Shown here: one piece after another, positions 55,632 through 57,713 of the stretch | How the letters are laid out: each line of letters begins with the position of its first letter | Numbering within the stretch: position 1 is the stretch's first letter | From: Escherichia coli | GTDB lineage: Bacteria; Pseudomonadota; Gammaproteobacteria; Enterobacterales; Enterobacteriaceae | NCBI RefSeq assembly: GCF_051903065.1 | Contig: NZ_CP178438.1 | Reading direction: 5' to 3' (one strand) | DNA: 64,000 bases | The notes under the pieces: generated by a model | What the model saw: the letters and a program-made list of their open reading frames with translations, nothing else | Databases searched by the model: none | Told to the model about the DNA's origin: nothing | Translations under genes and position numbers: made by a program

Positions 55632-57713
55632 ATGATAATCAGCCCTCCAATATTGCATGCGCATATAGACACTGAAAAAGACTCTGACTGGGTAAACAGA
55701 ATGATGTCTGTTGATCCAGAAAGAAATTTCCCAATGAATAGCGGTCGTTCTTGGCATGGTGGAGTTCATTTGAACGGCAATCTGTCAGAGACTGTTAGGT
55801 GTATTGCCGATGGGAAGGTTATTTCAATACGCCAGCCAGAACCAGCGGAAAATACAGTTCCTCCGTTAAATTATAACGGAGTTACGGATAAAGGCTATGT
55901 TCTGATAAAACATGAAACAGAAATCGGTAGTGGAGAAGAGGGTAAAATCGTCTATTACTCATTATATATGCACCTGAGAAGCATTGACAGTAATGTGCAG
56001 CCGGGAAACACGCTATACCGGAAAGAACCGGTTGGTGCAGCAGGGATGGTGGACGGACAGAACGCCTTTCATTTTCAGATTTTTTGTGATGATGAAAACA
56101 TTCAGAAAATCACAGGAAGAATATCACCGGAAACAGACCTGAATAAAGATGGACGAACTGATGTGGTTTACGGTGATAGTCATTTTTATCTCCCTGCCGG
56201 AACACCGATTTATGGGGACATGCCGGAAGAAAACTCGCTTGCGAACAACAGTCCGGTACAAAGAACCAGCGTGCCATTGTATGTCACAATGAGTTTTGAT
56301 AAAGGCAATTGTACGATGGTGACGCGTCAGCAGCATGAAGTGCTGAGTGATACCTATACTGAAGTAGGTTCTCCCTTGATTAATGCTGATGGTAAGGATT
56401 ATGAATACAATCTCTATTCCTACGCGCTGCAACTCTATCCGAAAAGCCCAAGTGCCGGTTATGAGATGCTGCGTTTTGGTCGGGTTGTTAATACAGAATA
56501 TGAAGAATTAGTCCCGGCGGATGCGCCGCTGTGGCGAACAATCAATACGCCACAGGGTAAAGGCGTTGTTAACTTAGGGGCGAGAGATATCAGGGTTTAC
56601 AGCGACGGTGATTTTCCACACTGGACAGGGTGGAAACTGGTGAACGATGATGCGGACACCAACAGCCAGTGCAATTCACCAACAATCCTGTGTACAACCC
56701 GCAATGACCTAAGTCGGATGATTTGTCATTTTCCGCTAGAATGGGACAGCACCACCGTGGAATCACGGTTTGAGTGGCTGAAATCACCCAATGACGTATT
56801 GAGTAAGCCGATGACAGAGCCTGACTTGGATTTGCTGATAGAACACTGTAAGGCGCTTTGTTTGGTAGATAATCCGTTACCTGCCAGGCGTGTATGGCAT
56901 TTTGATCCCAGGCAGTTTATTGCACATTTCAGGAAATGTGGGTGGTTAGGAGAAAATGATATTATAAGTGTGGTAAGACGTTATCAAAATGCTTATCCCA
57001 TGACATCAGAACTTACAAGACCATTAAGTAAAGACACTCTAATTGAGCGGATTACTAGCCAAGGACAAAATAGCAGTGGTGAGGTGATAAGACCTGCAGG
57101 GTTGAAAAATGAACTGTCAAAGTCACTAAGGAAGTACTTAATTACAACCCCATTGCGGATTGCGCATTATTTCGGTCAGATGGCGAGAGAAACAGGCAGA
57201 TTTGCGTCTTTTATAGAGAATGGTGATTCGAGTTATTTTGATATGTATGAGCCAGGAACAGAACAGGGACTTAAGCTTGGAAATAATGTTGTTGGTGATG
57301 GTGCAAGATTTAAAGGCAGAGGTACCATACATCTAACTGGTCGTGAGAATTATAGAAATTATAGAAATTATGGAAAGTATAGAAATCCGTCAGATGATGA
57401 TTTTTTTACTACAGAACCCAATAACCAACTCCCAGTTGAAAATGCCTATTTTTCTTGCGATGCCGGGGGATACTTTTGGGCAAGTAAGCAAAAATACATA
57501 ATGGTAAGCCATCGATTGACACCTAGTGGTAGTTTAGGCGTTAATTATTGGGCGGATAAAGGATGTAGTTTGTCAGATGCCAGAGAAGTTACACGGCGAA
57601 TAAACCCAGCAGCAGATGGCTTCGATTTAGTGCGTTGGCCAGCATTTGAGCATTCTTGGTATGTATTGAATGATGAAATAACACCTCCACTTAATTACAT
57701 AAGGATTGTTTAA
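55632..57713 (+). CDS. Predicted T6SS peptidoglycan-hydrolase effector: LytM/M23-like N-domain plus GH19/lysozyme-like C-domain
   Basis: 693 aa from ATG with RBS AAGGA; N-terminal WHGGVHL...YSLYMHL...AFHFQIF; C-terminal AHYFGQMARETGRF and KGRGTIHLTGRENYRNY (GH19/chitinase class I-like). Confidence 0.7.
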   Translation: MIISPPILHAHIDTEKDSDWVNRMMSVDPERNFPMNSGRSWHGGVHLNGNLSETVRCIADGKVISIRQPEPAENTVPPLNYNGVTDKGYVLIKHETEIGSGEEGKIVYYSLYMHLRSIDSNVQPGNTLYRKEPVGAAGMVDGQNAFHFQIFCDDENIQKITGRISPETDLNKDGRTDVVYGDSHFYLPAGTPIYGDMPEENSLANNSPVQRTSVPLYVTMSFDKGNCTMVTRQQHEVLSDTYTEVGSPLINADGKDYEYNLYSYALQLYPKSPSAGYEMLRFGRVVNTEYEELVPADAPLWRTINTPQGKGVVNLGARDIRVYSDGDFPHWTGWKLVNDDADTNSQCNSPTILCTTRNDLSRMICHFPLEWDSTTVESRFEWLKSPNDVLSKPMTEPDLDLLIEHCKALCLVDNPLPARRVWHFDPRQFIAHFRKCGWLGENDIISVVRRYQNAYPMTSELTRPLSKDTLIERITSQGQNSSGEVIRPAGLKNELSKSLRKYLITTPLRIAHYFGQMARETGRFASFIENGDSSYFDMYEPGTEQGLKLGNNVVGDGARFKGRGTIHLTGRENYRNYRNYGKYRNPSDDDFFTTEPNNQLPVENAYFSCDAGGYFWASKQKYIMVSHRLTPSGSLGVNYWADKGCSLSDAREVTRRINPAADGFDLVRWPAFEHSWYVLNDEITPPLNYIRIV

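Follow-up and report, generated by a model that had tools for sequence, protein, structure and literature searches.

What does a 693-amino-acid (aa) protein do that is encoded directly behind a VgrG spike gene in Escherichia coli, and whose N-terminal part has the fold of an M23 peptidase with altered metal-binding motifs and whose C-terminal part resembles a lysozyme? The gene lies at 55632-57713 of a 64,000-nucleotide stretch of contig NZ_CP178438.1 (assembly GCF_051903065.1; the whole stretch is called the window hereafter), where a first-pass annotation had described an effector uniting a divergent LytM/M23-like domain with a GH19 domain. A RefSeq gene model occupies exactly these positions (WP_226156858.1, 'M23 family metallopeptidase'), and its ATG start agrees with the MIISPP N-terminus common to homologues. 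Our analysis indicates that the protein is most likely a WHIX cargo effector of subclass I belonging to a type VI secretion system (T6SS); it would be loaded on the tail of its VgrG, act as a GH19 muramidase in the prey periplasm and be countered by the product of the gene downstream. It is an uncharacterised E. coli member of the WHIX/TseP-like class, whose architecture is already known: publications of 2025 describe the class together with its hallmark motif, its resemblance to M23 and its chitinase-like toxin. The parts of the gene needed for the argument on the N-terminal half are the following.

55632..57713, plus strand: effector gene, 693 aa plus stop; probable WHIX effector of subclass I whose toxin domain is GH19-like
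55632..56951, plus strand: WHIX domain, aa 1-~440, in which an M23-fold core is followed by a second conserved region up to HFRKCGW; the conserved unit in 39 homologues
55752..55769, plus strand: WHxxxH motif (W41 H42 G43 G44 V45 H46), in place of M23 HxxxD
55755..56096, plus strand: M23/LytM-fold core, aa 42-155, with H94, H114 (YMHL) and H147 (xHFQ)
56739..56744, plus strand: E370-W371, part of the second WHIX region; the counterpart of E370 in TseP is E539

The N-terminal domain and its published relatives

All motifs quoted in the first-pass annotation occur in the translation of 55632-57713, those of the N-terminal domain being WHGGVHL (aa 41-47), IADGKVIS, YSLYMHL (with H114) and GAAGMVDGQNAFHFQIF (with H147). 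The M23-like fold it had proposed for this domain was borne out. An AlphaFold2 model of the full-length protein, built from a 39-sequence alignment, had a mean predicted local distance difference test score (pLDDT) of 83.9 and a predicted template modelling score (pTM) of 0.88; means per 10 residues were mostly 72-95 in the WHIX region, with dips at aa ~31-40 (47) and ~331-360 (55-65). Foldseek searches of the PDB with the model returned M23/LytM proteins (lysostaphin, Csd2, EnvC, LytM and ShyA) for aa ~42-155, and Pfam Peptidase_M23 matched aa 42-155 at E=3.3e-4. The same Pfam family was detected at E<=1e-3 in 15 of 39 homologues and at E<=0.1 in 37 of them. NCBIfam, PADLOC and Pfam assigned no family to the effector apart from this weak M23 match, and a family profile search of the PDB matched no solved M23 peptidase by sequence.

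The annotation had delimited an N-terminal module of about 150 aa; the M23 core does lie there, but the conserved WHIX domain comprises the whole ~440 aa, which are kept together in the 39 homologues while the C-terminal domain is exchanged. Its second conserved region (aa ~255-440) carries YEYNLY, SPSAGYELLRFGR, FPHW, SQCNS, CHFPxEW, WHFxP and HFRKCGW. Residue conservation was counted over 150 representatives of 50%-identity clusters. Near-invariance was found at W41 (135/136), H42 (136/136), H46 (135/136), H94 (141/141), H114 (139/141) and H147 (141/144), and in the second region at W371 (141/144) and E370, which is kept in 136 of 144 representatives, with Asp in six more.

When aligned to lysostaphin, H42 and H46 fall on the His and Asp of HxxxD and H114 on the catalytic His of YxH. 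The HxH motif falls on A145-F146-H147, whose first His is lost and whose second is kept. The alteration of both zinc motifs, reported earlier as HGGVH and FHF, is real in substance, but the second of them was misplaced and retains one of its histidines. The M23 HxxxD motif is absent from the family, its Asp being replaced by His (H42-G-G-V-H46) in 135/136 representatives, and position 145 is variously R, Q, K or A, so that only the second His of HxH is kept. HGGVH is a family-wide pattern and no one-off degeneration. The suggestion of a degenerate binding module, offered earlier as an alternative, came closer to the best-supported role.

The WHxxxH motif gave its name to WHIX, which Fridman et al. 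(PLoS Biol 2025, PMC12135965) described as a T6SS secretion and loading domain made of two parts, with a predicted deep cavity and a second region of about 200 aa beyond a variable spacer. In that study WHIX was sufficient for secretion and bound the last 14 aa of the upstream VgrG, as shown for Awe1 and VgrG4; it is mostly joined to a C-terminal peptidoglycan-targeting toxin, with a gene for a signal-peptide protein downstream, and the commonest such toxin is 'chitinase-like' (2,242 unique proteins). WHIX effectors are antibacterial, and TseP is counted among them (PMC12135965). Our effector is like subclass I of that work in its WHxxxH motif near the N-terminus, its large two-part conserved N-domain, its predicted peptidoglycan-targeting C-terminal toxin of the commonest type, its position directly after vgrG, the signal-peptide protein downstream and the short C-terminal tail of its VgrG; the taxonomic range agrees as well (Enterobacterales, Burkholderiales, Pseudomonadales, Aeromonadales). 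Awe1 of Aeromonas jandaei belongs to subclass II, with an additional N-terminal toxin, two immunity genes and a FlgJ-like C-domain, whereas the E. coli effector has one toxin and no N-terminal extension.

Among characterised proteins the closest relative is TseP, from Aeromonas dhakensis SSU. Its N-domain, as reported by Wang et al. (eLife 2025, PMC11893102), is a Zn-dependent amidase that frees tri- and tetrapeptides, superposes on the M23 protein 3SLU and needs residues H19, H23, H109, H339, H359 and E539. Its C-domain (PDB 8XCL) is a lysozyme with E654 and E663, inactive as E663A or E663D, and the protein is carried by VgrG2 independently of a chaperone (PMC11893102). A genome scan with a 76-aa fragment of 8XCL led us to a TseP orthologue of A. 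piscicola, 96% identical over those 76 residues, which contains WHGGIH, YCLYMHI, AIHMEIF and HESEW. Cluster representatives of 844/845 aa and 588 aa, guessed from their length to be TseP and PSPTO_5204, had been rejected, neither having a PDB match. BLASTP aligned the effector with the A. piscicola orthologue over N-terminal residues 28-115 (E=1e-7) and C-terminal residues 546-616 (E=2e-7). A hidden Markov model (HMM) of the family gave collinear matches at 29-137 (E=1.3e-17) and 530-578 (E=6e-5), with a third stretch, 380-394, in order between them, weak and not significant alone (E=0.16). In an hhalign comparison of the N-domain profile with TseP-N only region 1 was confidently aligned, and it was the broader HMM that revealed region 2. 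With TseP numbering taken as the numbering of the orthologue open reading frame (ORF) minus 26, H19 corresponds to H42, H23 to H46, H109 to H114, H359 to H147 and E539 to E370, while TseP H339 aligns to V140, a variable position, and has no counterpart in the effector. From the spacing of the collinear HMM matches we deduce an insertion of ~240 aa in TseP between the YMH and xH motifs.

TseP and its homologues AHA_1849 and PSPTO_5204 match the effector in the order of their modules. TseP further resembles it in its chaperone-free delivery by the VgrG encoded upstream, as proposed for the effector (whose locus likewise has no adaptor gene), in the WHGGxH, YMH and xH(M/F)(E/Q)I motifs and SEW/EW Glu of the N-domain, in a C-domain Glu pair 9 residues apart, in a GC content that is higher in the N-domain than in the C-domain, and in signs that the N and C parts are of independent origin. 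It differs in its length of 845 aa, with the ~240-aa insertion and an EF-hand region, both lacking in the effector; the two proteins are ~30% identical in their N cores and 28% identical in their C cores, and the immunity proteins are unrelated.

This relationship raises the possibility of a dual enzyme of the TseP type, in which the N-domain would also be a Zn-dependent N-acetylmuramoyl-L-alanine amidase, with H42, H46 and H147 as metal ligands and H114 and E370 as catalytic residues, stripping peptides besides the cutting of glycan by the C-domain. Such an amidase is compatible with the WHIX cargo reading, and we regard it as possible but somewhat doubtful. The N-domains of TseP, AHA_1849 and PSPTO_5204 freed tri- and tetrapeptides in vitro and required Zn; the activity was lost in H19A, H23A, H109A, H359A and E539A (PMC11893102), the counterparts of which (H42, H46, H114, H147 and E370) are near-invariant in our family, and an M23 metal site with three His could well accommodate Zn. 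On the other hand, H339A was the sole TseP mutant without amidase that still supported T6SS assembly, the others having lost both (PMC11893102), and the one residue that separates amidase from secretion is thus precisely that replaced by the variable V140. Conservation of the His cluster may reflect loading as much as catalysis, and since the other TseP mutants lost their role in secretion too, the transfer of the term 'amidase' to the effector is uncertain. Of the two catalytic His of canonical M23 enzymes one is moreover missing, at position 145, and Awe1's WHIX domain alone was non-toxic in the E. coli periplasm (PMC12135965).

The pairing of endopeptidase and muramidase in one polypeptide, which the first-pass annotation put forward, finds no support in that form, given that the N-terminal pattern is the WHIX loading motif and that TseP-N is reported to be an amidase. 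That the N-domain works as a divergent M23 endopeptidase and cleaves peptide cross-links beside the GH19 muramidase is, in our estimation, quite unlikely. This reading can draw on the M23 fold, on the retention of two of three metal-ligand positions and of the YxH catalytic His (the third ligand position being His and not Asp), and on the RefSeq name. Yet both M23 motifs have changed throughout the family (HxxxD to HxxxH, HxH to xxH), sequence profiles found no solved M23 peptidase, the domain, which is conserved for its part in T6SS loading, runs on for 280 aa after the M23 core, and the free tri- and tetrapeptides released by TseP are products of amidase chemistry (PMC11893102). The M23/LytM peptidases compared (LytM, lysostaphin, ShyA and NMB0315/3SLU) keep the Asp of HxxxD and the first His of HxH, which here are replaced by His and lost, respectively, and the M23-like core is here embedded in a T6SS-specific unit of 440 aa. 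We know of no WHIX protein with demonstrated endopeptidase activity. In phage phi29 gp13 and Acinetobacter Tse4, too, a single delivered protein contains both an M23-type or peptidase module and a glycan-cleaving one, but both of their modules are canonical enzymes, whereas the M23-like module here is a probable loading domain whose catalysis is disputed.

The M23 fold is also found in EnvC and NlpD, which have lost their metal ligands. That the N-domain might be a LytM domain devoid of catalysis, activating the prey's own amidases in the manner of EnvC/NlpD, is highly improbable: the three His at the metal site are near-invariant here, unlike in EnvC and NlpD, and to our knowledge no homologue has been reported as an amidase activator. 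The lack of periplasmic toxicity of WHIX alone, cited above for Awe1, argues against it as well.

A further proposal concerns the M23-derived groove of the WHIX domain, lined by the near-invariant H42, H46, H114 and H147 and closed by E370 of the second region, which might both grip the ...(R/K)(F/W)x(F/L)S-COOH tail of VgrG and constitute a latent Zn-amidase site. The spike tail could then serve as a pseudo-substrate, silencing the enzyme up to the point at which the effector is released in the prey. We consider this dual role unlikely; if true, it would reconcile the reports of a 'secretion domain' and of an 'amidase' and explain the joint loss of secretion and activity in most TseP metal-site mutants.

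The C-terminal GH19 domain

57099..57710, plus strand: GH19 (lysozyme/chitinase-like) toxin domain, aa ~490-693, from PDB profile and Foldseek searches
57189..57218, plus strand: catalytic Glu pair E520 (RETG) and E529 (IENG), 9 residues apart

A GH19 domain with a catalytic Glu in ETG had been proposed for the C-terminal part, and it was confirmed. The motifs AHYFGQMARETGRF (with E520) and FKGRGTIHLTGRENYRNY are present in the translation. A profile search of the PDB returned the GH19 endolysins 9ms7 (E=8e-19) and 4ok7 (1.7e-11) and TseP-C, 8XCL (4.6e-11); Foldseek returned 9ms7 (E=3e-7, template modelling (TM) score on the target 0.74) along with 9eoi, 4ok7, chitinase C 1wvu and 8xcl. Pfam PF00182 had no match to the effector and reached E<=1e-3 in only 1/39 homologues. 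Profile and remote-homology searches and AlphaFold modelling, the checks named in the earlier annotation, thus found both an M23 and a GH19 fold.

The ETG glutamate, E520, is kept in 127/129 cluster representatives. A second catalytic Glu, E529, 9 residues past it and absent from the first-pass annotation, is kept in 120/125. The spacing of the pair is the same as that of E654 and E663 in TseP, and the pair aligns to the HES...E of the PWe2 endolysin. In the substrate-site motif GRGxxQ(L/I)(T/S), G562-R-G564 and T569 are present, and the Gln is replaced by His567 (GRGTIHLT; codon 57330-57332). The domain is like the GH19 phage endolysins of PWe2 (9MS7), SPN1S (4OK7) and P. aeruginosa (9EOI) in fold, Glu pair and GRG...T, and it probably hits the same glycan-strand target. 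Unlike these endolysins, GH19 is here the C-terminal part of a larger T6SS protein, and the Gln of GRGxxQ is His throughout the closest subclade of the effector.

Some databases call homologues 'predicted chitinase', and the same PDB profile matched class IV chitinase 5h7t (2.7e-4) and class I and II chitinases more weakly than the endolysins; plant and Streptomyces GH19 chitinases were among these weak matches. A true chitinase directed at fungi or other chitin-bearing organisms, and not at bacterial walls, is nevertheless very unlikely. The best matches by far are peptidoglycan degraders, namely GH19 phage endolysins and TseP-C; the signal-peptide protein downstream suits a periplasmic immunity factor, and WHIX effectors are, as noted, antibacterial (PMC12135965). 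In the muramidase reading that we prefer, the GH19 domain would use E520 and E529 in a lysozyme-like manner to cut the glycan strands of peptidoglycan in the prey periplasm.

VgrG carrier, immunity gene and condition of the system

53031..53315, plus strand: PAAR spike-tip protein, 94 aa (NCBIfam NF033420 T6SS_PAAR_dom, E=5.5e-47; RefSeq: PAAR protein)
53334..55481, plus strand: VgrG spike protein, 715 aa, presumed effector carrier (TIGR03361, E=5.6e-179); the effector starts 150 bp downstream
55389..55478, plus strand: VgrG C-terminal tail, an acidic low-complexity linker ending ...DETRVKFMFS-COOH; proposed WHIX docking peptide
57718..58173, plus strand: putative periplasmic immunity gene, 151 aa here and 167 aa when intact, 3' end truncated
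58169..58936, minus strand: IS1A element, 768 bp, its ends read directly (ggtaatgactcc... at 58169, ...ggcagcatcacc at 58936)

The effector gene belongs to an orphan PAAR-VgrG-effector-immunity island of the E. coli chromosome, in the order PAAR, VgrG, effector, small ORF, IS1 and a truncated ISAs1 transposase gene. By analogy with Awe1 and TseP, the N-terminal ~440 aa would load the effector onto the ...RVKFMFS tail of the upstream VgrG without a separate adaptor, and the spike would carry it when fired into a neighbouring Gram-negative cell. Nine other loci were compared, from Buttiauxella, Yersinia, Chromobacterium, Enterobacter, Serratia, Photorhabdus, Pseudomonas, Aeromonas and a second E. 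coli paralogue; each has a vgrG gene immediately upstream of the effector homologue, and some are within T6SS core clusters. The C-domains of these VgrG proteins vary (DUF2345 or gp5-trimer), yet all end in a flexible linker and a short hydrophobic motif: VKFMFS in the window, and elsewhere VRFVFS, KRWLFS, SYFLFS, ARSSFS, VKFFFS, QRWTLS, THPFSE, IYPLSL and TFFVPSR. This similarity of endings would fit a capping of the tail by WHIX, and we infer that the tail of the VgrG in the window is the docking peptide. In one Yersinia locus (L084 2144-3985) a 613-aa protein without Pfam match stands between vgrG and the WHIX effector, and in Yersinia L083/L084 6298-8801 three unannotated ORFs follow the effector; these extra proteins may be additional immunity genes or orphan cargo.

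The small protein encoded downstream is the candidate cognate immunity protein. Its N-terminus, MNFKKTIIISVGLIFISFSFVAKC, resembles a signal peptide with a hydrophobic leader, as judged from the sequence, and it has no Pfam, NCBIfam or PADLOC match. A Buttiauxella homologue with the same type of C-domain is followed by a related protein; in Yersinia and Chromobacterium, where the C-domains are of other types, the downstream proteins are unrelated to it. These proteins follow the type of C-domain, and all start with a signal-peptide-like leader.

In the window the immunity protein ends ...TGTVYR, compared with ...TGTVYHINIESVSNDKCLDKFK in strain A30, and IS1 begins directly after ...tgtatatc at 58168. 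The sequence past IS1 does not resume the immunity gene and shows no target-site duplication. The immunity gene has therefore lost its last 16 codons, and the ISAs1 transposase gene its 5' part; IS1A insertion with an adjacent deletion removed both. The effector ORF itself is intact, and the strain may therefore carry a toxin gene beside a damaged antidote gene.

A query of 2,851 bp around the effector is 100% identical in two complete genomes, 23CRST027 and 23CRST031, and only 19 of 5,426 complete E. coli genomes contain 80% or more of it. In a complete genome identical over the 2,851 bp (NZ_AP045789.1 543086-564962), a T6SS core cluster adjoins aspV/yafT. The same cluster has an IS903B between tssB and an hcp gene.

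Several observations weigh against the effector reading or against its operation in this strain. The part of the WHIX dataset that was searched did not contain WP_226156858, WP_249440024 or any of six homologue accessions, a point to which we attach little weight. Homology to TseP is distant, at ~30% identity in region 1 and only E=6e-5 in region 2. The Gln of GRGxxQ, replaced in the effector, is present in 115/123 representatives, against His in 4/123. An AlphaFold2 model of WHIX joined through (GGS)10 to the last 36 aa of VgrG, run with no control, left the tail without a confident placement (pLDDT 25-44 for the tail, down to 69 overall). In the complete genome just mentioned tssM is annotated as a pseudogene with an internal stop, so that its T6SS apparatus may be non-functional. 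With the tssM stop and the immunity gene truncated by IS1, the effector is possibly not deployed in this strain, where the system looks partly decayed.

Module exchange and the place of the locus in its family

54687..54978, plus strand: recombination overlap inside vgrG, from blastn against strain A30

The first-pass annotation had taken the effector for swapped T6SS cargo and had noted a fall in GC content from VgrG to effector to immunity gene. Measured values are 0.570 for vgrG, 0.428 for the effector (0.448 in the N-domain, 0.392 in the C-domain) and 0.307 for the immunity gene, and these steps support modularity. N- and C-domain identities to the effector are discordant among homologues (79%/28% in P0017, 51%/87% in P0011): the toxin domain is swapped independently of the WHIX scaffold. 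The proposal of swapped cargo is supported.

Comparison by blastn showed that window 52400-54978 is 96% identical to positions 1056-3634 of the A30 locus, and window 54687-58168 98.8% identical to A30 7290-10760. In A30 the effector and immunity gene follow an orphan vgrG 3' fragment, behind a complete PAAR-vgrG-DUF2169-toxin module. The vgrG of the window is a mosaic, its 5' part resembling the first A30 vgrG and its 3' part the orphan fragment, and the present arrangement therefore looks like the outcome of recombination between two vgrG copies, which on this comparison suggests that a DUF2169/PAAR-like toxin module was deleted. The 3' end of vgrG moves jointly with the effector and immunity genes, as one module. 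Such a unit would be mobile by recombination, with toxins swapped among WHIX scaffolds.

The island is flanked by ansP-yncG and pptA-yddH-nhoA; the region between them we take to be the rhsE locus of K-12. Within the yncG-PAAR spacer, a stretch of ~160 bp (52730-52890) is 88% identical to an A30 stretch 3' of the immunity gene (L002 11075-11237) and may be a repeat flanking the island. Non-coding DNA is AT-rich at 52492-53030, 5' of the PAAR gene (GC 0.325), and at 55482-55631, between vgrG and the effector (GC 0.293); the same holds for the final ~80 bp of vgrG, the part that codes for the acidic tail (GC 0.33 over 55400-55549). A 277-aa ORF antisense inside vgrG (54549-55382, minus strand) is in all likelihood an artefact caused by the GC-rich coding strand.

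The effector is distinct from two published ones, SARI_02625 of Salmonella arizonae (PMC12992299) and the 'DUF3289 + M23' effector of Enterobacter (PMC10763514). Public names of the homologues P0015, P0017, P0034, P0066, P0070 and P0074 are 'hydroxyethylthiazole kinase', 'kinase', 'Pyocin R, lytic enzyme' and 'predicted chitinase', and the kinase names look like propagated misannotation.

The locus adds no new category; it places a rare E. coli orphan VgrG island in the WHIX/TseP class. Many database entries of the family are misnamed, whether as kinases or, as here, as an M23 family metallopeptidase. The locus is a clear case of the movement of a vgrG 3' end/effector/immunity module and of its decay through loss of the immunity 3' end to IS1. 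As a compact member of 693 aa, the effector could be a convenient E. coli model for the question whether WHIX serves in loading only or is an enzyme as well.

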